From positions 64,001 through 128,000 of the forward strand of contig OZ219815.1 in NCBI GenBank assembly GCA_964291235.2: a stretch of 64,000 nt of DNA. Reading direction: 5' to 3'. The notes under the pieces are model-generated. The model did no database searches, was not told where the DNA came from, and was given only the letters and a program-made list of their open reading frames with translations. The translations under genes were made by a program, and so were the position numbers. The DNA is from Vicinamibacteria bacterium. Its GTDB lineage: Bacteria > Acidobacteriota > Vicinamibacteria > Marinacidobacterales > Marinacidobacteraceae. Shown here piece after piece: positions 2,200 through 30,013 of this stretch; positions within the stretch are counted from its first letter, which is position 1, and each line of letters opens with the position of its first letter.

Positions 2200-2450
2200 A
2201 ACGAGCGAAGAGAAACGGCAGCGAACTCTGTTCGCTGCCTGCGTGACCGGGGGGAAAGTGTGAAAGGGGGGCATCCCCCCTTTCACAAGAAAGCAACGAA
2301 GAATCGGAACTCGCCGCAGTGCGCCGAAGGCGCACAAGGGAGTTGCGGTTCCCGGCGCATTGCGCCGGGCGGTTCGGGGGCGGGGGCCCGAGGCTTCCCG
2401 CGCAACGGCTCCAAGCTGCCCAGCGGGGTGCCCCCGCCTCCGGACCGCTC
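2200..2450 (+). ncRNA. Structured multi-stem repeated element, copy 1 (RNA or ssDNA; family unassigned)
   Basis: Five stems: GGCAGCGAAC/GTTCGCTGCC, TGTGAAAGGGGGG/CCCCCCTTTCACA, AATCGGAACTC/GAGTTGCGGTT, CCCGGCGC/GCGCCGGG and a long terminal stem. Homologous to 22838-23092 and 29684-30013. Confidence 0.6.
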
Positions 2451-2453
2451 GAC

Positions 2454-2485
2454 AAAAAAGGGGGCGGGCCCGAAAGCCCGCCCCC
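2454..2485 (-). terminator. Rho-independent terminator of the TonB-dependent receptor gene
   Basis: Minus strand reads GGGGGCGGGC-TTTCGG-GCCCGCCCCC-TTTTTT, 23 nt downstream of the stop codon. Confidence 0.9.
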
Positions 2486-2508
2486 AAAGGTTCTTGGGTT
2501 GAGATCGC

Positions 2509-5500
2509 CTAGAAGGTGATCTTCGCCATGAACTGGAAGGTGCGCGGATAGCCCCGCGTACCCGGGATGCTTCCGAAGGTGGACGATCCCAGGACCGTGC
2601 GTGGCCCGCGCCAGTTCACATGGTTGAAGAGGTCAATGAACTCGAACCGCAGGGTCAGGTTCATGTCCTCGTACATCCGCGTGGTCTTCTCGAGCGCGAC
2701 ATCCCAGTTGATGAGGACCGGGCTGCGCACCGAAGCCGTGTTGTTCGGAGCGTTGCTCAGCGTGAGTCCCTGGGTGAGTTGCGCGTCGCCGGCCGAAAGG
2801 TAGCTGGTGTGGTTCCCCTTCGGGTTGCCGCCGCCGCTCAGGTTCGCACTCGTGGGCCGTTGGTGGTTGAAGCCGTAGGCGCTCAGCGGGTTCGAGTTCT
2901 GCGTGACCACTACCGGGAAGCCGCTCCGCATGATCGCGACCGCCGAAAGCGCCCAGCCACCGAAGATCGGATTGTCACCAGGCGTGCGCCAGGTGCCGTT
3001 CACGTTGAACTGATGCGGCACGTGGACCCGCGACGGTCCGTAGTCGGCATCAAGCACCGGGCACTTGCCGTAAGCGCACTCGTCGGGCGTGTTGTAGATG
3101 ACGCTCGTCTCGTTCTCGAGCAACTGGTTGTTCTCGTAGATGTTGTCCTCGTGCTTCGTGAAGGTGTAGTTGATCCGGGCGCCCCAGTTGCCCCGGAAGC
3201 GCTTCTCGAACTCCACCCGGAGGGCGTTATAGAGCGACTTGCCGGAACTCACGTGGCGGGCGAAGACGTTCCGGAAGTGCGGATACGGACGAAGGAGCTG
3301 GCCGAGCGGCAGCGTTTCCACACCCGAAAAGCTGCCGAAGCGCGGGTCGTTGTAGAAGGGGTTGGGGTATTCGTCGTTCAACCGGTCGCCGAGCGACAGG
3401 TACTGGTCAGCCAGCTGGTTGATGTTGATCGACGAGTTGTTCGTGCCGCCGATACCGAGATCGGCGCCCTGGCTACCGACGTAGCCGATCTTCAGCGCCA
3501 GGTCGTTCCCGATGTCCCGCTGGAAGTCGAGCGACCACTTGTTGATGTACGGCGAGGCGCGGAACTGCTCGTTGAAGTACACGTTGCTGCCAATGTTCTG
3601 CAGGCGGCCGTTGGCGTTGCCGATCGGGTTCGCGATGCCGTTCGGGAACGGGTTCGACGCGGTCGCAGCCGGCGGGGTGATGCCGTCAACGCTGGTCGCG
3701 AGCGAGGTGACGTTCGTGTAGCCATAGGTCCCCAGATGGCTGGCGCCCGTGCCGCTGGGAATGGCGTAGGGCGCCCAGAAGACGGCGTATCCGCCCCGAA
3801 TCACGGTCTCGGGGTTGATCGTGTAGGCGAAGCCGACGCGGGGCCCCAGCTTCATGCCCGGCGGGTCCCACTGGTGGGTGGGGTTGCCGTCCACGCCCGC
3901 GTACATCAGGCCGCCGCGCAGCGGGAAGCCGGGAAGGCTGCCCTCGATGGCCGGGTCAAGCCCGACCTGCATCGGGAACGGGTTGGTCCGGTCCCAGCCG
4001 ACCGCGAAGCCGTTGTCGTCTTCCATGAGGCCGCTTTCGTGCTCCACGCGGAGTCCGAGGTTCAGGACGAGGTTCTGGCTGGGCCGCCAGTCGTCCTGGA
4101 TGAAGCCGCCGTAGTAGTTGATGAAGACATCGGCGGGCTCCGCGATGGTCGCGCTCCCCCCGCTCGGAATGCCGAGGAGCAGATCGGCCATCGCGCTACC
4201 GGAACCGCCGTCCGGCGCGGTGGGGCTCGGTCCCTGGGTGAAGCTCTGGTTGAAGCTCATGGAGAACCCGTTTCCGAAACTCGCGGCGTGCAGCCCCATC
4301 CTCCGGAACTGACCACCGTACTTCACGGTGTGATTGCCGAGGAACATCGAGTAGGTGCCGCTGACCTCGCGCGAGGTCCACTGGACATCGGTGTTGGACC
4401 AGGAACCGTGCGTCGAGCCGCCGTCGCCGAAGTCGGAGACGGAAATGGACGGGAACTGCCCCCCATAGCCGGCCTGCGAATAGAGCTGATCGATGAAGCC
4501 TCCCTGGATTCCGAGGCCCGCGACCTGATCCGCCCCAAACGCCGGGTTGACGACCGAGTCGTTGAAGTACGTCTGGCCGTAGCGCAACGTCAGAACCGAG
4601 GTGCTGCCAACGACGAAGGTGTTGTTCAGGGCAACGGCGTGCACATCGCGGATCAACTCCGCGGCGCCGATCCCGAAATCCGGGGCGCTATCCGCGTTCA
4701 GGAGGTCCGTGTACTGCTGGAACGCCCCTTCGCTGGACGTGTAATAGAGGTAGGTCGCCGTAGCCTGCCAGGAATCCGAGAACGAGTGACTCAGGTTCGC
4801 GGTGGACTGGAGGGCCGTCGTCTTCTGCGCTCCGGACGTACTGATTCCGCCGCCCGGCCCCAGGGTCGTCAGCAACTGGGCCAGGCCGGAGCCCGCCGGA
4901 TCAATCATGTGCGAGGGAATCCGGTTCCCCGCAAACGGTTGGCGGTTGCCGTTCGCGTCGAGGTCGAACGGGTTGTAGATCGTCGTGCCGCTCGCCGAGA
5001 AATCGCCTGCGGCCTCGGCCGCCGTCGGCAGGATGACCTGCGTGTTCTCCGCGAGGAGATCGTTGTTTCCTTCGGCCGAAAACCAGAAGAACGTGCGGTC
5101 CCGCAGGATCGGGCCGCCGAAGGAGCCGCCCCAGAGCCAGAAGGGCTGGCTCGCAAGATCGTCATCGTTGATCTGACCCGAGTCGTACGCCAACTGGTCC
5201 GTATAGGACAGCGCCCGCCAGAGCGTGTTCCGAGTGCCGGGGCGCCGCTGGTACAGGCTGCTGCCGGCCCAGTTGTTCGTGCCGCTGCGGTGGATCACGT
5301 TGAACACGCCACCTCCGGTGCGGCCCATCTCCGCATCGTAGGTGTTGACCTGCACCTTCATTTCCTGCACCGCCTCGAACACCGGGATGATGACGGTGCG
5401 GTTCCGCAGGTCCGTTGTGGAGACGCCGTCCACGGTGTAGTTGTTGCCGCGGAGCGGTCCGCCTCCCAGCGAGAGGAGCGAGGAGTTGGTCTGGTCGGAC

Positions 5501-6021
5501 TGCTTGACCCAGACCGGGTTTCCGGTATGGACCACGTTCGGCGTTCCGACACCCAGAATGAACACGTTGCGGCCCGGGGTGGGAAGCACTTCGAGTTCCG
5601 CCCGGCTCACCGCCGAGGAAACCGAGGCGGTCGCGGTCTCGATCAGCGGCGTCTCGCCGATGACCGTCACCGTTTCCTCAATCCCACCAATGGAAAGACT
5701 GGCGTCCACCACCAGGAACGAGGAGACCCCCACGATGAGGCCCTCGCTCACATACGGCGCAAAACCGCTCAGCTCGGCGCGCAGCGTGTACGTGCTCGGC
5801 TGAATGTTGGCGAAGTTGTACTCACCGACCGCGTTCGTAACCGCGGTCCGCGAAACGCCGGTGTCCTCGTTGTCCAGCGTCACCGTGACGCCGGGCAGGA
5901 CACCGCCGTCGGCGTCCTGAATGACGCCACGGACGCCGCCCTGGAATGTCTGGGCGAAAGCGCCCGACGCGAGTCCCAGAACGCCGAGCACCGCGGCGGT
6001 CCTAAACAAAAGCGATCTCAT
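2509..6021 (-). CDS. TonB-dependent receptor (Oar-like, N-terminal carboxypeptidase-regulatory-like domain)
   Basis: Signal peptide, GVIQDADGGVLPGVTV domain, plug motifs (NNYTVDGV, YDAEMGRTGGG), GGFIQDDWR, C-terminal Phe; AAGGAGG RBS. Confidence 0.93.
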   Translation of the reverse strand: MRSLLFRTAAVLGVLGLASGAFAQTFQGGVRGVIQDADGGVLPGVTVTLDNEDTGVSRTAVTNAVGEYNFANIQPSTYTLRAELSGFAPYVSEGLIVGVSSFLVVDASLSIGGIEETVTVIGETPLIETATASVSSAVSRAELEVLPTPGRNVFILGVGTPNVVHTGNPVWVKQSDQTNSSLLSLGGGPLRGNNYTVDGVSTTDLRNRTVIIPVFEAVQEMKVQVNTYDAEMGRTGGGVFNVIHRSGTNNWAGSSLYQRRPGTRNTLWRALSYTDQLAYDSGQINDDDLASQPFWLWGGSFGGPILRDRTFFWFSAEGNNDLLAENTQVILPTAAEAAGDFSASGTTIYNPFDLDANGNRQPFAGNRIPSHMIDPAGSGLAQLLTTLGPGGGISTSGAQKTTALQSTANLSHSFSDSWQATATYLYYTSSEGAFQQYTDLLNADSAPDFGIGAAELIRDVHAVALNNTFVVGSTSVLTLRYGQTYFNDSVVNPAFGADQVAGLGIQGGFIDQLYSQAGYGGQFPSISVSDFGDGGSTHGSWSNTDVQWTSREVSGTYSMFLGNHTVKYGGQFRRMGLHAASFGNGFSMSFNQSFTQGPSPTAPDGGSGSAMADLLLGIPSGGSATIAEPADVFINYYGGFIQDDWRPSQNLVLNLGLRVEHESGLMEDDNGFAVGWDRTNPFPMQVGLDPAIEGSLPGFPLRGGLMYAGVDGNPTHQWDPPGMKLGPRVGFAYTINPETVIRGGYAVFWAPYAIPSGTGASHLGTYGYTNVTSLATSVDGITPPAATASNPFPNGIANPIGNANGRLQNIGSNVYFNEQFRASPYINKWSLDFQRDIGNDLALKIGYVGSQGADLGIGGTNNSSININQLADQYLSLGDRLNDEYPNPFYNDPRFGSFSGVETLPLGQLLRPYPHFRNVFARHVSSGKSLYNALRVEFEKRFRGNWGARINYTFTKHEDNIYENNQLLENETSVIYNTPDECAYGKCPVLDADYGPSRVHVPHQFNVNGTWRTPGDNPIFGGWALSAVAIMRSGFPVVVTQNSNPLSAYGFNHQRPTSANLSGGGNPKGNHTSYLSAGDAQLTQGLTLSNAPNNTASVRSPVLINWDVALEKTTRMYEDMNLTLRFEFIDLFNHVNWRGPRTVLGSSTFGSIPGTRGYPRTFQFMAKITF

Positions 6022-6371
6022 GAGTCCCTCCTTAAAAGGTCGAATGAGTTCATGAGCCTGATGCCCGAAGGCAGGCAGTCCACAGCAAATCTGGTTGGCG
6101 GAGAGCGAATAACGGCAAATCCACGTGTCTAGAGGGCGGAACTTTAGGCGATCCGGCCATGTTTCTCCACTGTTACCCCAGTGTCACGGCAGGCAAAGGG
6201 CGGACCGCTTTCGCAGGGCACCGCTCCTGATTCTATAAGTCACTGACTTTACAGGGTATTGTCCGTATTTTCAGTCCCAACGAACACGCGGGTGGCTGCC
6301 AGAGTCGAATTCAAGAAACCGAACGAAATACGGCTGATCAGATCGCTGCCGGGAAACGGACCGCCCCGGAT

Positions 6372-7583
6372 TCACGACCCGGCGTCGCGCGTCGCCATGC
6401 GGTCGAAGAAATCAGCGTGTCCGGCCAGGATCCGATCCTCGGCGTCCCGATTCGGCTCGAGGGACCACTCCCCTCGTTCCCGCGTGCCCCCGAGCAGAAT
6501 GCCGTCGGCCCGCGGCATCATGTAAAGACCCTGATAGAGCGCGATGTAGCGGATCTCGGGCTGCGGCAGCAGGACCGTAAGCTGCCCCTTGAGCGGAACC
6601 AGTTCCTCGTCGCCGACCAGGTCCCGGGCGCCGATCCCCGTGCAGTTGACCACGCGGCGTTCCGGGAGGCCGGCAACCTCGCCCAGGGAGCGGAAGTTCC
6701 GGATGCGGATCCGGCCGCCGGCGAGCCGGAAGTCCTGCATGACGGCTCCGAGGTACACCGGCGGCTCGATCATCATGGTGGTGTACTCGCGGGCATAGCG
6801 GACCGGGAACGGATGGGTTCCGGGCGCCAGATCCCGGGTCTGGGGGAAGAGGTCGGCAAGCCGGTCGGGCTGGCCGGGACCCCCGAACGGCACATCGCTG
6901 AGCGGATAGTTCGGAAGCCAGTGGACGCCGTAACGCGCACCCACCAGATCCTGGAAGATGCGGTGGGAGATGCGGGCGGCCCGCTCGAGCCGATCCTGGA
7001 ACGCGTCCGTGTGAACGCGGGCATCCGAAACCGAGTAGGGACCCCACTGGGCGCAGGCCACGTTCGAGGTCGTGGCCGGGGGCAGATCCTTCGCGTAGAT
7101 GGTCACGTCCACGCCGCGCCGCTGCAGCAGCCGCGCGGTGGCGAGCCCCACCGCGCCGCAGCCGATCACCGCCGCCCGCGCCGGGAGCGAAGCGTCGCCG
7201 AGGAGTTCCTCGACGGCGAGCCAGGCGCTGCCCCAGGAGAGGGTGACCCCAGCGCCGCCGTGTCCGTAGTTGTGGACCAGGATCCGGCCGTCACCGAGGT
7301 CCTGGCGCTCCACCCGGAAACCCGACGGGCGATAGGGCCGGAGGCCGACCACGGTGCGGATGATCCGGTCCCGGGCGACCTTCACCGCCGGGAGCCGGAA
7401 GGCGGGGGCAAGCGGAGGATCGGACCCGGTCCGCGCCGCCGGCAGCGGCCGGCCGGCACAGGCCGCGGCCACCCCCGCCGCGAGCCCCGGAGCAAGTTTC
7501 GCGGCGGTGCCGAGCACGCGCCGCCGGGAGGGAAGGCGGAGCCGGTCCCCGGGGGGAGGCGGGGAGGACAGAGGCGGCGGCAA
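6372..7583 (-). CDS. Tat-exported FAD-dependent D-amino-acid oxidase family protein (permuted motif order)
   Basis: SRRRVLG twin-arginine signal; GLRPYR and HNYGHGGAG motifs; GCGAVG dinucleotide-binding motif; VVNCTGIG. Start moved to TTG 7583 (uncertain). Confidence 0.85.
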   Translation of the reverse strand: MPPPLSSPPPPGDRLRLPSRRRVLGTAAKLAPGLAAGVAAACAGRPLPAARTGSDPPLAPAFRLPAVKVARDRIIRTVVGLRPYRPSGFRVERQDLGDGRILVHNYGHGGAGVTLSWGSAWLAVEELLGDASLPARAAVIGCGAVGLATARLLQRRGVDVTIYAKDLPPATTSNVACAQWGPYSVSDARVHTDAFQDRLERAARISHRIFQDLVGARYGVHWLPNYPLSDVPFGGPGQPDRLADLFPQTRDLAPGTHPFPVRYAREYTTMMIEPPVYLGAVMQDFRLAGGRIRIRNFRSLGEVAGLPERRVVNCTGIGARDLVGDEELVPLKGQLTVLLPQPEIRYIALYQGLYMMPRADGILLGGTRERGEWSLEPNRDAEDRILAGHADFFDRMATRDAGS

Positions 7584-7675
7584 GAGGTTTTCTATACTAG
7601 GACACGGACGGCTCGCCAAACGCTGATCCAACCAGCGGATCCGGGGCGCACCCGTCAGGCCGGGAGGCGAACGCA

Positions 7676-8401
7676 ATGGATCGCAGACTCTTTCTGAAAG
7701 CGGCGGCCGCGGTGAGCGGCGCCGGCATCGTGGGCGTGAACGATCGGGCGGAAGCGCTCGAACACGAGATGATCCATCTGCTCGAGGCGCCGGAGCGTCC
7801 GCCGCTCTCGAAGTCGGAGGGAGAGGAGCCGCTTTCGGAGATGCCCGCGAAGCCGACGCTGGTGGACTTCTTCAAGCATCGCTTCGCTCCGGCCTCCCAC
7901 GTGTTGCAGAGCGCGACCCGCGCCCTGAAGCACGGGATGAGCGAAGAGATCGTCCTCGCCTGCCTGCTCCATGACATCTCGGTCACCAACCTGGTGCGCG
8001 CCGACCACGGCTGGTGGTGCGCCCAGATGATCGAGCCGTACGTGCCTGAAAAGGTCGCCTGGGGCATCCGCTACCACCAGGCGCTCCGCTTCTTCCCCGA
8101 CCCGTCCGTGGGCTACGAGTACCCCGAGATGTACGTGCGGATGTTCGGTGCCGACCACGAGCCGGAGCCGTACATCAAGGCGGCCCATGACTACGCCAGA
8201 AACCACAAGTGGTACATGGAAGCGCGCTCCATCACCATGCACGACGACTACAGCTTCGAGCGCGGCGTCGAGGTCTCGATCGATCCGTTCGTGGACATCA
8301 TCGGCCGGAACTTCAAGCAGCCCAAGGAAGGGCTCGGGAACGACAACAGCCCCACCGCCCACATGTGGCGGACGATGATCAACCCCCGGCGCCGGCTGTA
8401 G
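7676..8401 (+). CDS. Tat-exported HD-domain metalloenzyme (PhnZ/MIOX-like ligand set)
   Basis: MDRRLFLK signal; H(VLQ)...LLHD...DHG...RYH...HDD pattern. Confidence 0.75.
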   Translation: MDRRLFLKAAAAVSGAGIVGVNDRAEALEHEMIHLLEAPERPPLSKSEGEEPLSEMPAKPTLVDFFKHRFAPASHVLQSATRALKHGMSEEIVLACLLHDISVTNLVRADHGWWCAQMIEPYVPEKVAWGIRYHQALRFFPDPSVGYEYPEMYVRMFGADHEPEPYIKAAHDYARNHKWYMEARSITMHDDYSFERGVEVSIDPFVDIIGRNFKQPKEGLGNDNSPTAHMWRTMINPRRRL

Positions 8402-8434
8402 ATCGTCGAGCGGACCTGGAAGGGGGCGCGCCAC

Positions 8435-8716
8435 GTGGCAAAGCGGCCCAGCCTCACCGGTTTGCTCCGCAGGGTTCGACTGGGCGAAACCGTCCTGATT
8501 ACCGACCGCGGCAAACCGGTCGCGAGGATCGAGCCCTGCCAGCCGACAGACGGCGACGACCTCCAGGTAACGGCGCTGCTTGCCCGGCGAGGCATCGCCG
8601 GACCGCCGCGGGCAACTCTCGACGTCCACAGCTTTCTGAAAGCTCCCCGGCCGCGCCTCCGCCAGGGGGTCCGGGCCAGCGATGCGGTCTCGGCGGACCG
8701 GGATGAGTCCCGGTGA
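8435..8716 (+). CDS. Type II antitoxin, Phd/YefM family
   Basis: LLRRVRLGETVLITDRGKPVARI is a typical Phd motif; GTGA overlap with the downstream PIN gene. Confidence 0.85.
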   Translation: MAKRPSLTGLLRRVRLGETVLITDRGKPVARIEPCQPTDGDDLQVTALLARRGIAGPPRATLDVHSFLKAPRPRLRQGVRASDAVSADRDESR

Positions 8717-8962
8717 AGTACTGGGACTCTTCGGCGCTCGTTTCCCTGTTTGTTGACGAGTAGGAAACGGCGAACCGTCGGGCTCTGTTGCGTGAGGACC
8801 ACCAGGTCGTCACCTGGTGGGGCAGCGCCGTGGAGTGCGCCGCGGCGCTCCATCGGCTCCATCGCCAGAGCGGCCGACCAGAACCCCCCGAACCTGGATC
8901 TCGTTTCAAGCGACGCTCGCCTCTCCGAGGCGGCTTTACGCGAAGGCTTCGCCGTCCATTAG
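8713..8962 (+). pseudogene. vapC: VapC/PIN-domain toxin pseudogene
   Basis: MKYWDSSAL start, in-frame TAG at 8761-8763, continuation VVTWWGSAVECAAAL, then frame change near 8868 to the C-terminal LVSSDARLSEAALREGF; the central part is missing. Confidence 0.85.
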
Positions 8963-8981
8963 CGCGACTTGAACGTCGTCG

Positions 8982-9030
8982 GAGTTTCGCGGCCTGCGGC
9001 CGCGATGCCGGCCGGAGGCCGGCGCTCCTA
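8982..9030. repeat. REP-like double-hairpin repeat
   Basis: GAGTTTCGCGGCCTGCGGCCGCGATGCCGGCCGGAGGCCGGCGCTCCTA; 48/49 identical to 44368-44416. Confidence 0.9.
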
Positions 9031-10335: not shown

Positions 10336-10394
10336 ACCCTGGACCAGGGGTCAGACCGGCTCCCGCCCGGCCGCGCCAGCCGCCGATCGACCGG

Positions 10395-12235: not shown

Positions 12236-12239
12236 GCCG

Positions 12240-21013: not shown

Positions 21014-21030
21014 GGCGTGGTTTCCTTTCG

Positions 21031-22848
21031 TTGGCGCGATTCGCCATGAACAGCCTAAGCGAGCACAATGGACTCATGGCCGACAAACTCTCTCCCCCCA
21101 TCTCCCCGCCCCCGCCCGGACCCGAGCGGCTCGCCTGGAACCGGCGCCGCTTCATCGCCGGACTCTCCGGGCTGGGGCTCGGCTCCACGCTGCTCCCCGG
21201 TGCGCTTACGGCCTGCGCCGGAGACGCGGGCGCCGTCTCCGTGGGAATGCTGCGCACCGCCCAGCAACTCGCGGGCCTCGATCTGTCCGACGATGAGTTG
21301 TCCACGGTGGCCGAGCGGCTGAACGGCGAGCGGAACCTGCTGGACGCCTACCGCGGCATCCGGGATCCCGAGATCCACAACCACCTGCCGCCGTCGTTCG
21401 TCTTCCATCCCCTGCCCCCGGGCAAGCCGATGCCGGAGACGGCCGGCGGAATGCAGCCGTCCCGGCCGGAGGCTTCCCGACCCGAGTCCGACACCGAGCT
21501 CGCGTTTCTTCCCGTCACCCACCTGGCGCGACTGGTGGAGTCCCGGCAAGTGACGTCGATGGAACTCACCGAGCTCTACCTGGCGCGGCTCAAGGAGTTC
21601 GATCCGGTCCTGATGTGCGTCGTGAACCTGACCGAGGACCTCGCCCGCGAGCAGGCGGCCCGGGCCGACGAAGAGATCGCCGCCGGGAACTACCGCGGCC
21701 CGCTCCACGGCATTCCCTGGGGAGCCAAGGATCTGCTCGCGGTGAGGGGGACGAAGACCACCTGGGGGGCGTCCCCCTACCGCGACCAGGTGATCGACGA
21801 GGACGCCACCGTTTACACGAAGCTCACCGACGCGGGCGCGGTGCTGGTCGCCAAGCTGACGATGGGCGCGCTGGCGTCGGGGGACCGCTGGTTCGGGGGC
21901 CGGACCCGGAATCCGTGGAACACCGAGCAGGGATCCAGCGGCTCCTCCGCCGGCCCGGGGGCGGCGACCGCCGCCGGCCTGGTGGGTTTCTCGATCGGCA
22001 CCGAAACGCGCGGTTCGATCATCTCGCCGTCAACCCGCAACGGCATCACCGGGCACCGTCCCACCTTCGGCCGGGTCAGTCGGGCGGGCGCCATGGCGCT
22101 CTCCTGGACGATGGACAAGATCGGCCCCATGTGCCGGAGCGCCGAGGACTGCGCGCTGGTGTTCGAAGCCATCCGGGGCGCCGACGACCTGGACCGGGCG
22201 GTTCACGATCCCCCGTTCGCCTGGGACGCCTCCGCCGACGCGGCGGCGCTCCGCGTGGGTTACGACCGGGCGGCCGTCGAAGACGAGATCGAAGACGATC
22301 CGGAAAACCCGGAACGGGCGGCGCTCCAGCGCACCGCGCAGGAGAACACCCGGGCGGCGATCGAAGTCCTCCGCGGGGCCGGTATCACGATCACGCCGTT
22401 CGAACTGCCGGAACTCGACTGGGACGACCTCTCCTTCGTCCTCTCCACGGAATCCGCCGCCGCCCACGACGCTCTCGCCCGGAGCGGGGCCGACCTCAGC
22501 ATGAGGGAGCCTCCGGAGGACAGCCGCTGGCCGGACACCTTCCGCACCTACCGCTTCGTCCCCGCGGTGGAATACATCCAGGCGATGCGGGTACGGACCC
22601 GGATCATGCGGGAATTCGACGAGGCGTTCGGCGACCTGGACCTCTTCATCGGGTCGAACCTGGGCCTGACGAACCTGACCGGACACCCCGAGGTGTGCAT
22701 GCCGAACGGATACCACGAGGGGTCGCCGACCAGCCTGCGGATGACCGGGAAGCTCTACGGGGACACCGAAATCCTCACGCTTGCGCACGCCTACCAGCAG
22801 GTCACCGACTTCCACTCGAGAAAACCCCCGGTCGGCGTCGAGCGGTAA
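21031..22848 (+). CDS. Tat-exported amidase-signature enzyme
   Basis: NRRRFI signal; GAKDLL, GSSGSSAG, GTETRGSI (Lys-Ser-Ser triad). Start may be later. Confidence 0.92.
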   Translation: MARFAMNSLSEHNGLMADKLSPPISPPPPGPERLAWNRRRFIAGLSGLGLGSTLLPGALTACAGDAGAVSVGMLRTAQQLAGLDLSDDELSTVAERLNGERNLLDAYRGIRDPEIHNHLPPSFVFHPLPPGKPMPETAGGMQPSRPEASRPESDTELAFLPVTHLARLVESRQVTSMELTELYLARLKEFDPVLMCVVNLTEDLAREQAARADEEIAAGNYRGPLHGIPWGAKDLLAVRGTKTTWGASPYRDQVIDEDATVYTKLTDAGAVLVAKLTMGALASGDRWFGGRTRNPWNTEQGSSGSSAGPGAATAAGLVGFSIGTETRGSIISPSTRNGITGHRPTFGRVSRAGAMALSWTMDKIGPMCRSAEDCALVFEAIRGADDLDRAVHDPPFAWDASADAAALRVGYDRAAVEDEIEDDPENPERAALQRTAQENTRAAIEVLRGAGITITPFELPELDWDDLSFVLSTESAAAHDALARSGADLSMREPPEDSRWPDTFRTYRFVPAVEYIQAMRVRTRIMREFDEAFGDLDLFIGSNLGLTNLTGHPEVCMPNGYHEGSPTSLRMTGKLYGDTEILTLAHAYQQVTDFHSRKPPVGVER

Positions 22849-23092
22849 GGAAGCGGGGCGACACCAACGCGACAGGAACGGGAACCACCTGGTCATCAAA
22901 CAGCAGAGCCCCGCTTCCTTACCGCCCGGCGCTTCGCGCCGCGAACCACAACTCCCTTGCGCGCCGTTGGCGCGCGGCGGCGAGTTGCGATTCGTCGTTA
23001 CCGTCTTGTGACAGGGGGTGAACCCCCTTTCACACTTTCCCCCGAACTCGCAGGCAGCGAACAAAGTTCGCTGCCATTGTTCATTGCCGTGG
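22838..23092 (-). ncRNA. Structured multi-stem repeated element, copy 2
   Basis: Reverse complement aligns to 2200-2450; perfect 18-bp terminal stem GCGGTAAGGAAGCGGGGC/GCCCCGCTTCCTTACCGC overlaps the amidase stop codon. Confidence 0.6.
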
Positions 23093-23128
23093 TGGCAACT
23101 CACCAGGCCTTCGGATCCGGGTAGCCAG

Positions 23129-23362
23129 AGGAGCGCCGGCCAGGAGCGCCGGCCTCCGGCCGGCATCGCTCCGCCCAGTGGAGCGAAACTCCCGTCGTCA
23201 ACCGGCCAGGATGGCGCCGCAGCCCAGCAGTGTGGCGCGGCGCCACTCCCGCTCTGGTACGGCGACGCGCCGTCCCCGCTTGGACTGGTGCCGTCGAGGC
23301 TGACTAAGTCAGGGAGTTTCGCCTCGCTGTGCTCGGCGATGCCAGCCGGAGGCTGGCGCTCC
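23129..23362. repeat. Inverted pair of REP-like palindromes (REPIN-like)
   Basis: AGGAGCGCCGGCCTCCGGCCGGCATCGC at 23142-23169 (partial duplicate at 23129) and GCGATGCCAGCCGGAGGCTGGCGCTCC at about 23336-23362 in opposite orientation. Confidence 0.8.
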
Positions 23363-23403
23363 GGGCGCTCCTTCTCTGGAGGTCGGCCCAGTCTCCCCGC
23401 GGA

Positions 23404-24729
23404 CTAGAGATAGTCCGCGGGGTTCGCCGCAATGTGGCGGACGCTCGCGAGCAGCCGGTCCACCTCGTGCGGCATGTTGTAAATGTGGGTCGAGGCCCGC
23501 ACCGCGTTGAGATTCCCCGTGCCCATCGTGCGGATGAACACCCGGTCGCGGTCCAGAATGGCCTCCTGGACGTTCGCCATCGGGAGGTCGTGGACCGAGA
23601 ACAGCGTCAGGCCGGCCGCGAGTTCGTCGCTCGCCGACGTCCAGAGCTTGACTCCGGGGATCTCCCGCAGTCCGTCCCGGAGGCGCCCGGAGAGCATCCG
23701 GACCCGCTTCTCGATGAGTTCCTTCCCGATCACGTTCTGGAACTCGACGGACTTCACCAGTGCAAATTGGCTGGGGACGTGGCGCTGGCCGGTGTTCTCG
23801 TACTTCCGGGAGTCCTCGCGGAAGCGGCGCTCGCCGTCCTGGCGGTAGGTGCCGGCGCCGATCAGGGGCCAGATGTCGCCCATGGTGTCCCGCCGGATGT
23901 ACGAGAGGCCGGTCCCGGTACCCGCCATCAACCACTTCTGGCCGGCGCCCGCATAGTGATGGCAGTCCAACTCCTTCATGTCGAGGGCGATCATCCCGAG
24001 CGGATGGGCGCCGTCCACGGTGAGCATGAGGTTCTTTCGGGCGCAGAGCTCGGCCAGTTCCTTCACCGGCATCAGCAGGCCGGTGACGTAGGTGATGTGG
24101 CTCACCATGATCGCCCGGGTCCGCGGCCCGATCGCATTCTCGTAGATCGAGAGGATCTGGTCTTTGCTCTCCGGGGGAGACGGAATGTCCACCCACTTGA
24201 TCACGGCGCCATAGCGCTCCCGGGCGTGGATGTAGGGCTCGATACCGCCGTTGTGTTCATGCGTGCACATGAGCACCTCGTCGCCCTCGCGCCAGTCGAG
24301 TCCCCGCCCGAAAATATTCATCCCCTCCGTGGTGCTGCGCGTGTACGTGACCTCGTCGGGCTCCGCCCCGATGAAGGAGGCGAGCGTCTGCCGGCGTTCG
24401 TGGAGTTCGTCGCGCCGGTACCCGTTCGTCGGGTCGGCGGCGATCTCGGCGTAGATCCGCGCCTCCTCGTCGGCCACCGCCCGCGGGTTCGGTCCCAGGG
24501 TGCCGTTGTTCATGAACGCCATCCCATCGACCACATTGAACTGCGAGCGCACCTTCCACCAGTAGTCCTCGCCCGGACTCCCTGGCGGAGAAAGGTCACC
24601 AAGTGGCAGCGGCGGAACCGCCCGCTGCGCGGCGGCGGCCGCCAGAGTTGCTCCCGGGAGCGCGGCCGCACCGAACGCCGCGGCGGATGCACCAAGGAAA
24701 CGCCGACGTGAAATTGCCGTGGTTGTCAT
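23404..24729 (-). CDS. Tat-exported class V PLP aminotransferase (isopenicillin N epimerase/cysteine desulfurase-like)
   Basis: SRRRFLG; MNNGTLGP, STTEG, EHNG, VDGAH, GQKWL (PLP Lys), RASTHIYN. Confidence 0.9.
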   Translation of the reverse strand: MTTTAISRRRFLGASAAAFGAAALPGATLAAAAAQRAVPPLPLGDLSPPGSPGEDYWWKVRSQFNVVDGMAFMNNGTLGPNPRAVADEEARIYAEIAADPTNGYRRDELHERRQTLASFIGAEPDEVTYTRSTTEGMNIFGRGLDWREGDEVLMCTHEHNGGIEPYIHARERYGAVIKWVDIPSPPESKDQILSIYENAIGPRTRAIMVSHITYVTGLLMPVKELAELCARKNLMLTVDGAHPLGMIALDMKELDCHHYAGAGQKWLMAGTGTGLSYIRRDTMGDIWPLIGAGTYRQDGERRFREDSRKYENTGQRHVPSQFALVKSVEFQNVIGKELIEKRVRMLSGRLRDGLREIPGVKLWTSASDELAAGLTLFSVHDLPMANVQEAILDRDRVFIRTMGTGNLNAVRASTHIYNMPHEVDRLLASVRHIAANPADYL

Positions 24730-24845
24730 GGACTCCCCTTTCCCGCAGGAAAATCGGAACGTAGCGGAACCCGAGGGGGCACTTCAAATGTCGCAGGACG
24801 CGAGCGCCGCGCCCGCCCGTTCCGAAGTGAGATAATTTGAAGTTC

Positions 24846-26006
24846 ATGATTGATCCCTGCACGATCCTGGTGGTTGACGACGAACCCGATCTCGAAACGC
24901 TGATTCGCCAGAGGTTCCGCCGCCGGATCCGCAAGGAAGAAATGCGGTTCGTTTTTGCGCACGACGGTGTGCAGGCGCTCGAAGCTCTTGAAGGCCATCC
25001 GGAAATCGAACTCATCATGACCGACATCAACATGCCCCGGATGGACGGTCTGACCCTGCTGAACGAACTGCGAACCATCCGCCCGAAGTGCCGCGCGGTG
25101 GTGGTTTCGGCCTATGGCGACATGGCGAACATCCGTACCGCGATGAACCGGGGAGCCTTCGATTTCGTCACCAAACCGATCGACTTCAAGGACCTCGAAC
25201 TCACCATCGAAAAGACGATGACCCACCTCGCCATGATGCGCGAGGCCCTCAAGCACCGCGCCCAACTGCTCGCGCTGCACCAGGAGCTGCGAGTCGCCCG
25301 GGACATGCAGATGTCCATCCTGCCGCAGCGGTTCCCGTCAACGCCAAGCACGGATACGCACGCCATCATGACTCCGGCCCAGGACGTGGGCGGAGACTTC
25401 TACGACGTCTTCCACCTCCCCGACAAAAGACTCGGCGTCGTGATGGCGGACGTTTCCGGCAAGGGCGTTCCGGCGGCCCTGTTCATGATGGTCAGCCGGA
25501 CCCTGGTCAAGGGGAACGCCGTGAGCGCCCTCTCCCCAGGGGACGCCCTGACCCAGGTGAACAATCTGCTCGGAGAGGAGAACGAACGGGCCATGTTCGT
25601 CACCCTGCTGTTCGGGATTCTGGACACCCAGGGGGGAAGCTTCACCTACGCCAACGCGGGGCATTGCGCTCCCTACCTGCTGCGCACTGGAGAAAAACCC
25701 CGGGAATTGCCGCTCACCCAGGGAATCGCCCTGGGCGTCATGCCGGACTTCCCTTACAGCGAGGACAAGATCCAGCTCGAAGCCGGAGATCGGATTTTCC
25801 TCTATACCGACGGCGTGCCCGAGGCCGAGGCTCCGGACAAGGAACTGTTCGAGAACCAGCGACTGGAAGAAACCCTCCAGAAGGTCGCCGACCGGTCGCC
25901 GGAGGAGATCAATCGAACCGTCATCGAAGCAGTTCGGGTGTTCTCGGGAGGGGAACACCAGTCCGACGACATCACCTGCCTGACGCTCGCCTATCGCGGC
26001 AACTGA
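24846..26006 (+). CDS. Response regulator receiver fused to SpoIIE/PP2C phosphatase (RsbU/RsbP-like)
   Basis: VVDDE, TDINMP, TKP; VGGDFYD, DVSGKG, YTDG, SDDIT. Confidence 0.93.
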   Translation: MIDPCTILVVDDEPDLETLIRQRFRRRIRKEEMRFVFAHDGVQALEALEGHPEIELIMTDINMPRMDGLTLLNELRTIRPKCRAVVVSAYGDMANIRTAMNRGAFDFVTKPIDFKDLELTIEKTMTHLAMMREALKHRAQLLALHQELRVARDMQMSILPQRFPSTPSTDTHAIMTPAQDVGGDFYDVFHLPDKRLGVVMADVSGKGVPAALFMMVSRTLVKGNAVSALSPGDALTQVNNLLGEENERAMFVTLLFGILDTQGGSFTYANAGHCAPYLLRTGEKPRELPLTQGIALGVMPDFPYSEDKIQLEAGDRIFLYTDGVPEAEAPDKELFENQRLEETLQKVADRSPEEINRTVIEAVRVFSGGEHQSDDITCLTLAYRGN

Positions 26007-26012
26007 CTTCCG

Positions 26013-27251
26013 ATGCATCTGCGCGGTTCAGGGTGGGAGGACCGGCTGCCGCCGGTTTCGGATTTCCGGCTCCGGGCGGGCTGGATGTCCGTCCTCTGCC
26101 TTACGGGCGCGGTGGCGGGCGGACCGGCGGCCCTCGCATCCGCCCAGGACGAGACCGCAACCCCGGGCATCAGCCTCGAGCGCGTTCTCTTCGGGCAGTC
26201 GGCGGCCCTCAGCGGCCCGGCCGCGGCTCTCGGACAGGGGATGCGGCTCGGGATCCAGGCCGCTTTTGCCGAGATCAACCGCGGCGGCGGCGTCCACGGC
26301 CGGCGGCTCGAACTGGTCTCGCTCGATGATGGCTACGAGCCCGAGGCCGCCCTCCAAAACACCCGCCGACTGTTGCAGGACGAAGAGGTCTTCGCCCTCA
26401 TTGGTCCGGTCGGCACGCCGACCTCCCGCGCGGTCGAGCCGGTGGCCGCCCAGGCCGGAGCCCCCTACATAGGCCCGTTCACCGGAGCGGAATTCCTGCG
26501 CGAGCCGGAAGAGGCGCCGACCGCGGTGAACGTCCGCGCCTCATATTTCCAGGAAACCGATGAAATGGTCGAGCGGCTCACCGAGGATCTCGGTGTCTCC
26601 CGGATCGCCGTGCTCTATCAGGACGACTCCTACGGAGGCGCCGGGCTTGCCGGGGTTCGACAGGCACTGGCCAGACGAAGGCTGGAACTGACGGGCGTGG
26701 CCGCCTACCAGCGGAATACCACGGCGGTCAAGGTTGCCGTCCTGGAACTGCGCCGGATGCAGCCGGAGGCGGTGATCATCATCGGAGCGTACCGGCCGGT
26801 GGCGGAGTTCGTGCGCTGGGCCAGGCGCATCGATTTCACTCCCATCCTGATGAACATCTCCTTCGTGGGCAGCGAAGCGCTGGCCGCGGATCTCGGGTCG
26901 GCCGGCGAGGGAGTGCTGATCACCCAGGTCGTTCCCTTTCCGGAGGACACCTCGCTCCGCGTGGTGCGCAGCTACCGGGAAGCGCTCCGCCGACAGGAAC
27001 GGGGAGCACCGCCCAGCTTCGTGTCGCTTGAGGGGTACATCGCCGGGCGCCTTACCGGCGAGGTCCTCGAACGGGCCGGGCCGGAGCTGACCCGCGCCGG
27101 TTTCCTGCAGACTCTCACGACGATCCGCAATTTGGACTTCGGCGGTTTCTCGCTCACTTACGGTCCGGGAGACTCGCAGGGTTCCGACCGCGTGTTCCTG
27201 ACCCGTATCGAGGCGGACGGACGACTGAGGCCGCTCACCTCGCTGAGGTAA
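26013..27251 (+). CDS. Periplasmic binding protein (type 1, LivJ-like)
   Basis: GQSAALSGP, LDDGYEP, GPVGTPT, RASY, QVVPFP. Confidence 0.9.
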   Translation: MHLRGSGWEDRLPPVSDFRLRAGWMSVLCLTGAVAGGPAALASAQDETATPGISLERVLFGQSAALSGPAAALGQGMRLGIQAAFAEINRGGGVHGRRLELVSLDDGYEPEAALQNTRRLLQDEEVFALIGPVGTPTSRAVEPVAAQAGAPYIGPFTGAEFLREPEEAPTAVNVRASYFQETDEMVERLTEDLGVSRIAVLYQDDSYGGAGLAGVRQALARRRLELTGVAAYQRNTTAVKVAVLELRRMQPEAVIIIGAYRPVAEFVRWARRIDFTPILMNISFVGSEALAADLGSAGEGVLITQVVPFPEDTSLRVVRSYREALRRQERGAPPSFVSLEGYIAGRLTGEVLERAGPELTRAGFLQTLTTIRNLDFGGFSLTYGPGDSQGSDRVFLTRIEADGRLRPLTSLR

Positions 27252-27256
27252 CGGGG

Positions 27257-29689
27257 ATGGCCGAGGAAGACCGGCAGAACGGGACCGCGGCGCGTGATGA
27301 GGAAGAGGTGCGCGAAGAATCCACCGAGTCCGTCGAGGAAACGGAGGAATCCGCCCAGACGACGGAGGAGTCCGCCGGCGTCTCGATAGTCGGAGCCCTC
27401 CGGGAGGCGCTCTCCGGGAAGAAGCCCCTTTCCCCTGAGGAAGGCGGCGGGGCACCCGAGGAGGAGGCCGCCGCCGCGGCCCCGCGAGACGAGCCACCGT
27501 CGGGAGGGGCCGACGAATCCGACCCCGGCGCCGCGGAACGGGGCGGCTGGTTTCGCCGGAAGTTCGCCCTCCGCCAGAGCCTGCGGGTCCAGATCGCGGC
27601 CGGCCTCGGGGCGGCCATCGTCTTCACCCTCCTCGCGAGCATCATCGCCCTCGTCGCGTTCTTCCAGGTCGGTCGGATCCAGCGGGAAATCAACACCGAC
27701 TACGTGCCGGCGCTGACCCGCGCCGTCCAGATCGGGCAACTTGCGACCGATCTGGCGGGCGCCGCTCCCCGGCTGGTGGCGGAAGCCAGGAACCGCCAGC
27801 TCTCCTCCGATGCCTCGCAGGAAGAGAGTCCCGCCGCCGCGGCCGGAAACATCGACCTGCTGGAGAACGCGGCGCGCATCATCGAGCTTTCGTCGGACCT
27901 CGCGGTCGGTGAACGGACGGCCGGGCTCCGGCAGTTCTCCGCCGATCTCGCGAGCAACCTTCGGGACATCCAGGTCTCGGTCGAGGGCGGCGTCGAGTTT
28001 CAGGAACGGCTGGCGCAACTGCAGGAAGAAACGGCCGTGGAGACCCGGGAGTTGAACGAACTCATCGGACCCCTGCTCGACAACCAGGTCTTTTTCATGG
28101 CGACCGGTCTCCGCACGCTCGACGACGAGCCGGCTCCGATCGAGGTGCGGGGTTCGGAAACGGAAGTGATCTACCAGCACGCCCTGAGCGCCATCGATGC
28201 GCGCGGCAACCTCGCCGGCAGCCTCATCAGCGACGTGATCGTGCAGGACGACCTCGAACTGGTCGAAACCCTCGAAGAGAGGTTCCGGGCCGCCACCGCC
28301 GGCACCTTCCGGGCGCTCGACACCCTCGGTGACCGCGCTCCCCCGCAACTGGAGACGACCCTCAACACGATCTACGAACTGGGCCTGGACCCGGAGGGGG
28401 CGTTCCCGGTACGCCGGCGCTATCTCGCCGAACTTCGGAACCAGCTCGCCTACCTGGCGCGGAACGAGTCCATCACGGACTCGCTGGAATCCGCGGTGGC
28501 CAGCCTGACCGTGGGACTCGAGGTGGACGCGCTGGCCGCCACCGAGGAGTCGGAGGCGGCGCTGAATCTCGGGAGATCCCTGCTCGTGGCGCTGAACGTC
28601 CTGGGAATCAGCAGTGCCGCGCTGATTCTGTGGCTCTTTGTGGGCCGGTTCCTGATCGCGCGGCTGACCGCCCTTTCCCGCGCGATGCGCCGGATGGCGG
28701 GAGGCGATCTGGAGACCCGCATCGAGGTTCGCGGCCAGGACGAGGTCGGGGAGATGGCGCAGGCTCTCGAAGTCTTCCGGCAGCACGCCCTCGAGGTGCA
28801 GCGGCTCAACCTGGTGGAGGAACTCGCCACCCGGGTCGAAGCGCAGAACGAGGAATTGGCGAAGACGCTGGAAGACCTGGAAAAGGCGCAGGACCAGATC
28901 GTCATGCAGGAGAAGCTCGCGTCCCTCGGCCAGTTGACGGCCGGAATCGCGCATGAGATCAAGAACCCGCTGAACTTCGTCAATAACTTCGCCGACGTCT
29001 CGAGCGACCTGCTGGAGGATCTCAAGGAAGAGCTGGAAACCGTCAAGGAAAACGTGCCCGAGGAATCACTGGCGGAAATCGACGACATCAGCACCGATCT
29101 CTCCGGGAACCTCGAGCGGATCGTGCACCACGGAAAACGGGCGAGTTCCATCGTTTACGGCATGCTCGAACACGCCCGGAAGGAAGGCGGCGAGACCCGT
29201 CCGACGGAGATCAACGCCATGCTCGAGGAATACATCGCGCTCGCCTTCCACTCGATGCGCGCCGTGGACAACCGCTTCCAGATGACCATCCGGAAGAATC
29301 TGAGTGACGACGTCGGCGCCATCGAAGCCATCCCGCAGGACCTGAGCCGGGTGTTCCTGAACATCGTGACAAATGCCTGCCAGGCGACCTTCGACAAGCA
29401 ACTGGACGAGAGTTCGGATCCCGGCTATCAGCCCGAACTGGCCGTGAGCAGCAGCAAGGAGAACGGCCAGGTGGAAGTGCGCATCAAGGACAACGGTCCC
29501 GGCATCCCGCCAAACCACCTGGCCAAGATCTTCGAGCCGTTTTTCACCACGAAGGACACCGACAAGGGAACGGGGCTCGGCCTCTCCCTTTCGCACGACA
29601 TCATCCGGGGGCACGGCGGCACGCTGGCCGTGAACTCGGAGGTCGGCCAGGGCGCCGAATTCGTGATCACCCTTCCCGCCGCGTCGTAG
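27257..29689 (+). CDS. Membrane sensor histidine kinase (periplasmic helical sensor, HAMP, HisKA, HATPase)
   Basis: Two TM segments, HAMP DEVGEMA, AHEIKNPLN H-box, DNGPGI, FEPFFTTK, GTGLGL. Confidence 0.93.
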   Translation: MAEEDRQNGTAARDEEEVREESTESVEETEESAQTTEESAGVSIVGALREALSGKKPLSPEEGGGAPEEEAAAAAPRDEPPSGGADESDPGAAERGGWFRRKFALRQSLRVQIAAGLGAAIVFTLLASIIALVAFFQVGRIQREINTDYVPALTRAVQIGQLATDLAGAAPRLVAEARNRQLSSDASQEESPAAAAGNIDLLENAARIIELSSDLAVGERTAGLRQFSADLASNLRDIQVSVEGGVEFQERLAQLQEETAVETRELNELIGPLLDNQVFFMATGLRTLDDEPAPIEVRGSETEVIYQHALSAIDARGNLAGSLISDVIVQDDLELVETLEERFRAATAGTFRALDTLGDRAPPQLETTLNTIYELGLDPEGAFPVRRRYLAELRNQLAYLARNESITDSLESAVASLTVGLEVDALAATEESEAALNLGRSLLVALNVLGISSAALILWLFVGRFLIARLTALSRAMRRMAGGDLETRIEVRGQDEVGEMAQALEVFRQHALEVQRLNLVEELATRVEAQNEELAKTLEDLEKAQDQIVMQEKLASLGQLTAGIAHEIKNPLNFVNNFADVSSDLLEDLKEELETVKENVPEESLAEIDDISTDLSGNLERIVHHGKRASSIVYGMLEHARKEGGETRPTEINAMLEEYIALAFHSMRAVDNRFQMTIRKNLSDDVGAIEAIPQDLSRVFLNIVTNACQATFDKQLDESSDPGYQPELAVSSSKENGQVEVRIKDNGPGIPPNHLAKIFEPFFTTKDTDKGTGLGLSLSHDIIRGHGGTLAVNSEVGQGAEFVITLPAAS

Positions 29690-30013
29690 GTGGTTTCCGA
29701 ACGGGGCCGTGAGTCCGGTCAGGTCCCGTAAGTCAACCCGAAACCGAGTCGAGGCCCCCTTCGGAAACCACCGGCGCTGCGCGCCGGAAATCGGAACTTT
29801 CCTCGCTGTGGCAAGCCTACGGCGCGCTGTGCGAACCCAAGTTCCGATTTGACGCCGTGTTCTTGTGAGATCGGCGGTGCTTCGGCTGGTCTTGCTGCTA
29901 GCCGGGATTTCTCATACCTCATGGCCCAAGGTGCCGCGCGGATCACACTTTCCCCCCGGTCACGACGACACGGGGCGAACCCAAGGTTCGCTGCCATTTG
30001 TTTTCGCTCGTTC
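29684..30013 (-). ncRNA. Structured multi-stem repeated element, copy 3 (expanded stems 2 and 3)
   Basis: Reverse complement keeps AACGAGCGAA, GGCAGCGAAC, CGTGACCGGGGGGAAAGTGTGA, TCACAAGAA, AATCGGAACT and CCGGCGC-nnn-GCGCCGG, with longer inserts. Confidence 0.6.

Follow-up and report, generated by a model that had tools for sequence, protein, structure and literature searches.

The window analysed here, a stretch of 64,000 nt from a Vicinamibacteria bacterium of the phylum Acidobacteriota (positions 64,001 to 128,000 of contig OZ219815.1, assembly GCA_964291235.2), contains three dispersed copies of a noncoding, multi-hairpin element and raises the question of what this element is, which of its strands folds and how its copies come to lie where they do. 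A reading of the window made without database searches (hereafter, the sequence-only reading) took the element to be a selected single-strand structure that has spread, in the form of a noncoding RNA (ncRNA), a ribozyme-like RNA or a single-stranded DNA (ssDNA) substrate of a mobilising enzyme. The answer that we tentatively put first, and stop just short of calling probable, is that the element is a lineage-specific, strand-specific, non-autonomous repeat akin to repetitive extragenic palindromic (REP) sequences and their hairpin-forming doublets (REPINs), with a new and much larger architecture. Throughout, G000 denotes the window's own genome (3.45 Mb in 2 contigs, 68% G+C, 90% complete), the reader's strand is the orientation chosen in the sequence-only reading, and the gene-sense strand is its complement.

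The element is approximately 255 nt long and consists of five different hairpins that follow one another in a constant order. On the reader's strand, a leader (CCACCGAGCG, A-run) precedes P1, which is followed by a G-rich linker, P2, P3, P4, P5 and the end motif ACCGCTCGAC. P3 is a long stem in two parts; P4 comprises 5 pairs and a three-base loop, which is GNA in 57 of 59 aligned copies; and P5 has about 20 pairs and a loop of ~45 nt that varies freely. The two ends of the element carry a short inverted pair, CGAGCG/CGCTCG. Each full copy individually folds into the identical five hairpins, with energies of approximately -135 to -170 kcal/mol per ~245 nt. The three window copies are found where the sequence-only reading placed them (Table 1), and the outer and inner P3 arms read as it quoted them, whereas three of its structural statements hold only in part. 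P5, described as differing substantially between copies and still pairing, does pair in each copy, but its stems are variations on one theme rather than wholly different sequences, only the loop being free. Copy 3, described as carrying inserts in P2 and P3 only, does contain a P2 insert, which is a separate repeat of ~48 nt, but its P1 and P3 are degenerate as well. Target duplications are indeed absent, but a terminal inverted pair, also said to be lacking, exists, namely the 6-nt one indicated above.

The fold itself is strongly conserved. In an alignment of 59 distinct copies from about ten genomes, with an RNAalifold consensus of 63 pairs, 98.3% of the 3699 cells (63 pairs in 59 copies) are standard pairs, and changes on both sides are seen in 26 of the 63 pairs (241 cells). 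None of 500 column shuffles attains the observed value on any of five measures, and sliding the 3' partners by 1-3 columns reduces pairing to 34-53% of the cells. The aligned copies are related, so that these figures overstate the independence of the changes; nonetheless, the effect is very large. Most of the covariation sits in P5 and P3. By contrast, none of the 10 pairs of P2 changes on both sides, which indicates that P2 is conserved as sequence; it is a sequence-invariant inverted repeat with a variable spacer. Thus, the claims that pairing is kept while sequence changes and that a selected single-strand structure has spread are both borne out, the latter also by the presence of about 41 copies in the genome (see below).

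The wobble pairs identify the strand on which selection acts. On the reader's strand, the consensus helices contain 182 G.T cells versus 15 A.C cells, and 87 versus 15 after removal of two nearly fixed G.T pairs (G.U in RNA; present in 56 and 39 of the 59 copies, respectively). When single transitions are polarised against the commoner Watson-Crick state, the stems show 63 C>T versus 7 G>A changes and 22 A>G versus 6 T>C changes, whereas the corresponding counts in 41 conserved unpaired columns are 27 versus 41 and 36 versus 14. Because the asymmetry is restricted to the stems, it points to selection on pairing rather than to mutation bias, and the folding strand is the reader's, as the sequence-only reading had concluded from the wobbles of the three copies. 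The minimum free energy (MFE) is lower for the reader's strand in 65 of 84 copies; the G.U counts in the per-copy MFE folds of the two strands, 5.0 versus 5.4, are a weak measure because they include P5 loops and chance pairs. Our first guess, suggested by the docking and terminator features described below, was a functional RNA on the gene-sense strand; the wobble counts reject it as the selected fold. GNA triloops with a C:G closing pair typify DNA mini-hairpins of unusual stability, and by this analogy the loop of P4 can be regarded as a lead towards ssDNA.

The three copies in the window belong to a large genomic population. Two rounds of nhmmer search seeded with the window copies returned 45 rows in G000, of which 41 exceed 60 bits and 24 of these 41 span the whole element; the prediction of many copies per genome, made from three copies in 64 kb, is thus confirmed. 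An exact 21-base P2 motif is found in more than 103 stretches of public genomes, nearly all of them metagenome-assembled genomes (MAGs) titled Acidobacteriota or Vicinamibacteria, several bearing the name 'Candidatus Marinacidobacterium', and the record titles point to marine and sponge-associated Vicinamibacteria. A BLAST comparison, in which at most 20 candidates were scored per genome so that per-genome counts are lower bounds, detected the core of the element in every one of the 15 congeners and, outside the genus, in a single further genome; the single-contig genome G019 yielded at least 83 matches. With a covariance model of P1-P4 searched over 151 genomes of the class, matches were obtained in genus g1 (14 of 14 genomes and the window's own), genus g4 (3 of 3, all weak) and genus g5 (1 of 1), whereas none was found in the 8 genomes of four other genera of the same family or in the 124 genomes of 18 other families. 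Among the genomes searched, the element is therefore confined to three genera of one family. In g5, pairing of the P1 and P3 stems is retained although their sequences are quite different, while the sequence itself is kept in P2, P4 and the basal part of P5; the A/T-run next to P1 is also retained in a second genus. No Rfam 15 family matches the element at E-values up to 10, the matches inside it being at chance level (E >= 0.8, far below gathering), and the sole match at gathering level falls on the terminator adjoining copy 1; the sequence-only reading had likewise not recognised the family. As a separate observation, a few exact P2-motif matches come from MAGs labelled Oscillospiraceae, Dysosmobacter or Gemmatimonadetes; one such stretch (L027) is 76% identical to a flank in G000 and is probably a mis-binned contig.

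The copies are positioned in a highly regular manner. With genes called by our own crude codon-bias gene finder (86% coding density), the gene on the P5 side is convergent in 37 of the 41 G000 copies, so that the folding strand is antisense to the docked gene; the upstream neighbour points away in 17. In twelve copies the end of the element lies at -29 to +12 nt relative to the stop codon of the convergent gene. For seven others the partner is one of the 58 tRNA genes of G000 (three for Leu and one each for Pro, His, Phe and Val), likewise convergent, and the copy begins 0-7 nt past its 3' end; in all, 19 of the 41 are within ~12 nt of a stop codon or a tRNA end. Of 77 non-redundant copies in other genomes, 42 adjoin either a tRNA end (12) or the stop of an open reading frame (ORF; 30), and the rest are mostly members of arrays. 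At several loci the reading frame of the host gene enters the P5 arm and terminates there; in relatives, this is the case for the histidine-kinase-like gene next to copy 3. New copies are thus seen to arrive with the P5 end leading and to come to rest immediately next to a gene, a tRNA or a terminator, at its 3' end. As an observation on the protein, the C-terminal 4-18 residues of the histidine-kinase-like product are encoded by the junction and the P5 arm (window 29660-29689, orthologues L109-L122), and these tails differ among species (e.g., SGSRTGP, SGPQPGP, GSEAGRS).

Comparison of orthologous loci, fetched with flanking proteins as queries and hence unbiased with respect to the presence of the element, reveals that copies are gained, lost and replaced. 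At the locus of copy 1, the element is found, besides G000, only in G007 among the loci of 15 relatives; ten relatives with ample flank carry a REP unit instead, and in the remainder the flank is too short at two loci and orthology is doubtful at two. Here the element lies exactly after a conserved terminator T-run, and the P5 stems of G000 and G007 differ. At the locus of copy 2, the element is present in G000, where it has replaced the original stop codon, and in G013, a remnant is seen in G001, and in G004 a copy in the opposite orientation lies 171 nt away; 11 other genomes have no element within ±1.5 kb. At the locus of copy 3, 10 of 15 genomes carry a whole or partial element and the other 5 retain only a P5-arm remnant as the C-terminal coding tail of the protein; the element is triplicated in tandem in G013, and in G001 a partial unit has been inserted on the gene side of an older one, so that in both genomes partial or new units lie between the gene and the older unit. 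Elsewhere, G001 contains a subfamily of 6 copies with a common P5 loop as well as clusters of eight same-strand copies within 7 kb, G019 contains tandem arrays of five units, and two G000 copies are included in a duplicated block of 590 bp that ends exactly at the P5 end of the element. Copies are thus shown to be tandemly duplicated, replaced, truncated and deleted, with accretion on the gene side. Inspection of the translations by eye suggests that the L105 region (G001:C17:2399000-2419000), which holds eight same-strand copies, also encodes a candidate large serine recombinase (727 aa), a candidate IS4/IS1634-like transposase (an ORF of 639 aa) and a PPK2-like protein; the region may be a mobile island that accumulates the repeat.

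Sequence divergence at shared loci is compatible with such turnover. In 12 between-species pairs from 6 loci, found via the P2 motif and hence ascertained for presence, identity is 86% in the P1-P4 stems, 71% at unpaired positions of P1-P4, 76% in the P5 stem and 44% in the P5 loop, compared with 54-69% at 4-fold sites of the flanking genes. The P5 loop thus falls below the neutral yardstick, which, together with the observed replacements, suggests that many 'orthologous' copies are re-insertions at a shared hot spot instead of orthologues that have been conserved. At the copy-3 locus, where G000 and G004 have a P5 loop in common, the P1-P4 stems are 71% identical, which is near neutral.

The evidence that relates the element to REP sequences comes from a second repeat. 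The only Y1 transposase encoded by G000 (REP-associated tyrosine transposase, RAYT; C1 ~16.2-16.9 kb; L104 1096-1827) has 243 aa and carries HVH where the HUH motif is usually found. Either side of its gene is occupied by an array of a 120/121-nt REP unit that holds two small palindromes; the two arrays, of 3.3 and 5.1 copies, are inverted (C1 ~15.7-17.6 kb; L104 640-2521), a layout that we take to be that of REP-associated tyrosine transposases (REPtron). The REP unit has 205 nhmmer matches in G000. It occurs within 200 nt on the 5' side of 15 of the 41 five-stem copies, in all 15 in the same orientation as the element, and on the 3' side of only 2; in 5 copies that lack P1, a REP unit is fused at the position of P1. 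Furthermore, the tail of the REP unit (GTTCCCTTGCCTGTGCGCC) resembles the 3' arm of P1 with the linker (GTTCGCTGCCTGCGTGACC), and both repeats begin with CCACCGAG. Given the fused units and the shared sequence, the element appears to have a REP variant as its head. In the 90% complete G000, TnpB (PF07282) and reverse transcriptase (PF00078) have no matches, no HEARO or IS605-orfB family of Rfam is matched, and the best score for an integron integrase (TIGR02249) is 80 bits versus a cut-off of 265. Longer copies of the element with an ORF of their own were not seen, the two interrupted copies holding integrase islands. Three features escaped the sequence-only reading: the docking rule, the resemblance of P1 to a terminator when the other strand is read, and the connection with REP units.

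According to the REP/REPIN-like reading, the element combines a fixed body, P2-P5, with a head hairpin of REP type, for which either P1 or a REP unit can serve. The reader's strand would fold into the five hairpins to be recognised and copied, and copying or recognition in single-stranded form would depend on an enzyme supplied in trans, for which no candidate other than the RAYT, of the Y1/HUH type, was seen; likely points of protein contact would be P2, with its invariant sequence, and the hairpins with GNA loops. New copies are observed to push older copies and REP units outward. On the other strand, P1 and the T-run probably terminate transcription arriving from the gene, which would make insertion behind genes harmless or even useful. 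Among the alternatives named in the sequence-only reading, the ssDNA substrate fits best, the head being exchangeable with a REP unit, whereas an RNA or a ribozyme fares worse, given that there is no conserved promoter and that 37 of the 41 copies are antisense. REPIN populations are described as extragenic, capable of forming hairpins in ssDNA or mRNA, vertically inherited and long-lived (PMC3116915; bioRxiv 10.1101/2021.07.10.451892).

Several observations weigh against this reading. The RAYT gene is flanked by the REP unit and not by the five-stem element, the nearest copy of which is ~8 kb away. Y1_Tnp is detected in 12 of the 15 congeners, but a RAYT was not found in G004, G013, G015, G018 and G019, all of which are rich in the element, so that presence of the RAYT does not appear to track the element; the decay of REPINs after RAYT loss is described as slow (bioRxiv 10.1101/2021.07.10.451892). 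REP units have a convergent gene downstream in 142 of 205 cases, a weak orientation rule, which makes the rule seen in 37 of the 41 copies the five-stem element's own property. Neither a target motif nor a target duplication is found at the 22 listed junctions or in the comparison of filled with empty sites, and no transposition intermediate or de novo insertion was seen. No known ssDNA route accounts for the folding strand being the template strand of the docked gene. Finally, the high identity of the P1-P4 stems compared with 4-fold sites could reflect selection at the host level on each copy, for instance as RNA, instead of turnover.

The last point leads to the alternative that survives best, although we consider it unlikely, namely that the element is a structured ncRNA family transcribed from the reader's strand, convergently with the neighbouring gene, and acting either in cis as an antisense regulator or as a scaffold whose tail depends on the locus. 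The P1-P5 scaffold would then end at the 3' end of the gene or read into it. Covariation together with wobble asymmetry is what a functional RNA on this strand would classically show, two of the G.U pairs are close to fixation, P1-P4 are better conserved at common loci than synonymous sites, and P2 serves as an attachment site for integrases of a type that usually targets tRNA or tmRNA genes. The signals expected for such transcription are lacking, however. Conservation upstream of P1 ends at about -11 across 111 copies, with no conserved promoter, and a consensus scan found no promoter-like site beside the three window copies; P5 is not followed by a terminator; and the upstream neighbour is directed away in 17 of the 41 copies. 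Moreover, seven copies would be read antisense directly into tRNA genes, presence or absence of the element varies among close species, and copy 3 is decaying. Among sequencing runs that contain the stretch, four DNA runs of one study were listed and no RNA run.

Less likely still is the mirror-image explanation, that the element is a 3'-untranslated region (3'-UTR) or terminator module on the gene-sense strand, with transcripts of the docked gene or tRNA crossing the reversed P5-P2 and stopping at P1 and the U-run, its hairpins protecting the RNA or insulating neighbouring genes, and its spread being due to recombination. The docking data, in which 37 of the 41 copies follow a gene in this sense and about half abut its end, agree with this scenario, as does P1: in each of the three window copies, P1 and the adjoining complement of the A-run were flagged as resembling a terminator, with a G+C-rich stem, a short loop and an immediately following T-run. 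Apart from the A-run, which is kept at positions -9 to -6 in 81-98 of 111 copies and, as noted above, in a second genus, no flank of the element is conserved. In arrays, units without P1 precede (upstream) a terminal unit with P1. A gene-sense RNA, however, would contain 182 A.C mismatches versus 15 G.U pairs in its stems, the opposite of what selection on that RNA would produce; no advantage is evident in a terminator located 240 nt downstream; and sister species lack the element at the same loci with no visible replacement. Copy 1 lies behind a strong terminator and so would rarely be transcribed: it starts directly past the T-run of the canonical intrinsic terminator of gene 2509-5991, which is kept after the same gene in relatives. 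The suhB/mmgR match in Rfam (window 2447-2525, minus strand; 41.1 bits versus a gathering score of 41) is read as this terminator and not as a small RNA, and is probably a false positive for an alphaproteobacterial family in an acidobacterium.

We attach a similarly low expectation to a new class of device. This would be either a mobile or replicating single-strand element targeted to the 3' termini of transcription units (the CCA end of a tRNA, the T-run of a terminator or a stop codon), moved by an unrecognised enzyme, or a promoter-independent structured antisense RNA made at each copy, with its tail set by the docked gene. The enzyme would have to be an unrecognised one because the genome lacks a reverse transcriptase, TnpB, IscB and an integron integrase, and the presence of the RAYT appears uncorrelated with the element.

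The final alternative involves site-specific recombination and draws on a pair of integrative islands, of 8.2 kb and ~56 kb, whose ends are similar and which are inserted in P2 of two five-stem copies. Both island junctions retain an 8-nt core, AAAGGGGG, and a 382-aa P4-type tyrosine integrase (Arm-DNA-bind_3, Phage_int_M and Phage_integrase domains) adjoins the regenerated P2, followed by a sigma-70-like gene; integrases of the P4 type usually target tRNA or tmRNA genes. P2 is thus a putative multi-copy attB. The element as a whole might be a module for site-specific recombination, moved by a tyrosine recombinase that uses P2 as its core site; it would represent a miniature element, integrative or cis-mobilisable, or a decoy for attachment, and its arrays would grow by accretion at gene 3' ends. 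The invariance of P2, the common core of the islands, the docking at tRNA and gene ends and the gene-side addition of units speak for this reading, but it is highly improbable, given that host-gene junctions have no common core sequence, P2 lies in the middle of the element instead of at its end, the far side shows no partial duplicate of a tRNA end, an integron integrase is lacking and the wobble asymmetry indicates a single-stranded form. The remaining probability belongs to explanations that we have not considered.

The coordinates of the window copies, their neighbours and the islands are collected in Table 1. Apart from the element, these genomes contain small repeats that nest within one another's hairpin loops. 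The ~48-nt repeat in the P2 loop of copy 3 (query positions 80-127 of this copy) is present at ~17 other places in G000, with 83-100% identity. A palindromic mini-repeat of ~22 nt (CACCAGTTCTCCsGGTGGGGGG type) takes the place of the P4 loop in 3 of the 24 full copies (G000 C1:44499, C1:683203 and C2:1107641) and is also recurrent in intergenic DNA of G001 (L112 540-940). At the copy-3 locus of G007 (L117), G010 (L122) and G008 (L110), another structured repeat, of ~130 nt, is inserted between P4 and P3.

Table 1. Features of the element and its surroundings (window coordinates unless a G000 contig is given)
Feature	Position	Strand	Basis or remarks
Copy 1, full element	2196..2457	+	nhmmer bounds; fold
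Copy 1, parts	A-run leader 2207-2216; P1 2217-2239; P2 2260-2286; P3 2301-2351; P4 2354-2366; P5 2367-2450; variable P5 loop 2387-2430		ends with motif ACCGCTCGAC
Copy 2, full element	22832..23088	-	nhmmer bounds; fold
Copy 2, parts	P1 23053-23075; P2 23008-23033; P3 22943-22993; P4 22928-22940; P5 22840-22927; P5 loop 22860-22907
Copy 3, degenerate and expanded element	29694..30016	-	nhmmer bounds; fold
Copy 3, parts	P1 ~29972-29995; P2 29864-29948; P3 29789-29849; P4 29771-29787; P5 29689-29770		P1 imperfect; P2 interrupted; P3 expanded
Separate ~48-nt dispersed repeat within P2 loop of copy 3	29899..29946	-
Two REP-type units on 5' side of copy 1	1986..2151 (approximate)	+	same orientation as copy 1; matches end 45 and 156 nt before element
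Intrinsic-terminator-like site (P1 hairpin and T-rich run, gene-sense strand), copy 1	2217..2239	-
Same terminator-like site, copy 2	23053-23075	+
Same terminator-like site, copy 3	29974-29992	+
Canonical intrinsic terminator of gene 2509-5991	2460..2485	-	kept after same gene in relatives
Convergent gene next to copy 1	2509..5991	-	3' end towards P5 end of copy 1
Convergent gene next to copy 2	21046..22848	+	frame extends 16 nt into copy 2; stop TAA inside P5 base
Histidine-kinase-like gene next to copy 3	27257..29689	+	named from C-terminal sequence; ends 5 nt from copy 3
Integrative islands inserted in P2	G000:C2:1672848-1681041 (L171); G000:C2:514026-569963
Island integrase gene	G000:C2 1673032-1674180

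If the REP/REPIN-like reading is true, the element is the largest and most elaborately structured extragenic repeat of this kind, and its rare combination of a clean strand signature, strict 3'-end docking and a head that can be swapped with a RAYT-associated REP unit turns the recognition, copying and targeting of REP-type repeats into a testable question. If the element is instead an RNA, it represents a new multi-copy class of structured RNAs in a poorly studied, largely uncultured group. In either case, it rewrites C-terminal tails of proteins because reading frames continue into P5, supplies terminator-like sites, offers ~40 attachment sites per genome to integrase-bearing islands, and will confuse gene calling and binning of these MAGs.

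In the part of the literature covered, supplements not included, no description of the element was found, and its likeness to known systems is uneven. Mobile-element scaffolds of the IS200/IS605, TnpB or IscB type can be set aside given that PF07282 is missing from G000 and its sole Y1_Tnp gene has REPtron flanks, and RNAs borne by retroelements (group II introns or retrons) given that PF00078 is missing. Miniature inverted-repeat transposable elements do not fit either: the 6-nt pair does not amount to real terminal inverted repeats, there is no target duplication and no parent insertion sequence. The enterobacterial ERIC/IRU (enterobacterial repetitive intergenic consensus/intergenic repeat unit) and the neisserial Correia/NEMIS (neisserial miniature insertion sequence) families are repeats of 100-250 nt in transcribed or extragenic regions that can carry terminator-like or processing hairpins; they have long terminal inverted repeats, target duplications and one long hairpin, unlike the element with its 6-nt pair, no duplication and five hairpins. 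Single-strand initiation sites of the G4 type and single-strand origins of rolling-circle plasmids (ssi/sso) resemble the element in being orientation-dependent multi-hairpin ssDNA structures of 140-300 nt that function only with one strand folded, but these are single sites on phages and plasmids, and we know of no dispersed chromosomal family of this type. P4-type integrase sites at tRNA and tmRNA genes share with P2 a conserved symmetric stem-loop used for attachment and the location of the integrase gene next to the regenerated hairpin, whereas here the target is a ~40-copy repeat rather than a single essential RNA gene and the island does not restore the displaced linker and P1. The attC sites of integrons, for example the Vibrio cholerae repeats (VCR), likewise conserve structure above sequence, directly follow stop codons and form same-orientation arrays, and the folded strand that recombines in attC is the template strand of the upstream gene; the element is not an attC site, given that there is no integron integrase, that its neighbours are syntenic core genes and tRNAs rather than cassettes and that it is two to four times longer.

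The REP/REPIN-RAYT systems remain the nearest counterparts. Differences are clear: the element, with 255 nt and five different hairpins, contrasts with a palindrome of 20-60 nt or an inverted REP doublet, and it is strictly oriented and docks at gene and tRNA 3' ends. It is not filed as a member, given that no inverted doublet of one short REP palindrome is present, only the head (P1) being REP-like, and that the RAYT gene is flanked by the REP unit rather than by the element; in several element-rich genomes a RAYT was not found. Nevertheless, like these systems, the element is extragenic, occurs in tens to hundreds of copies, changes its single-strand hairpins in a pairing-preserving manner, is inherited vertically within a clade and forms subfamilies and clusters, and it is tied by both sequence and position to the REP unit that flanks the RAYT gene; in its working it is most like REP/REPIN populations.

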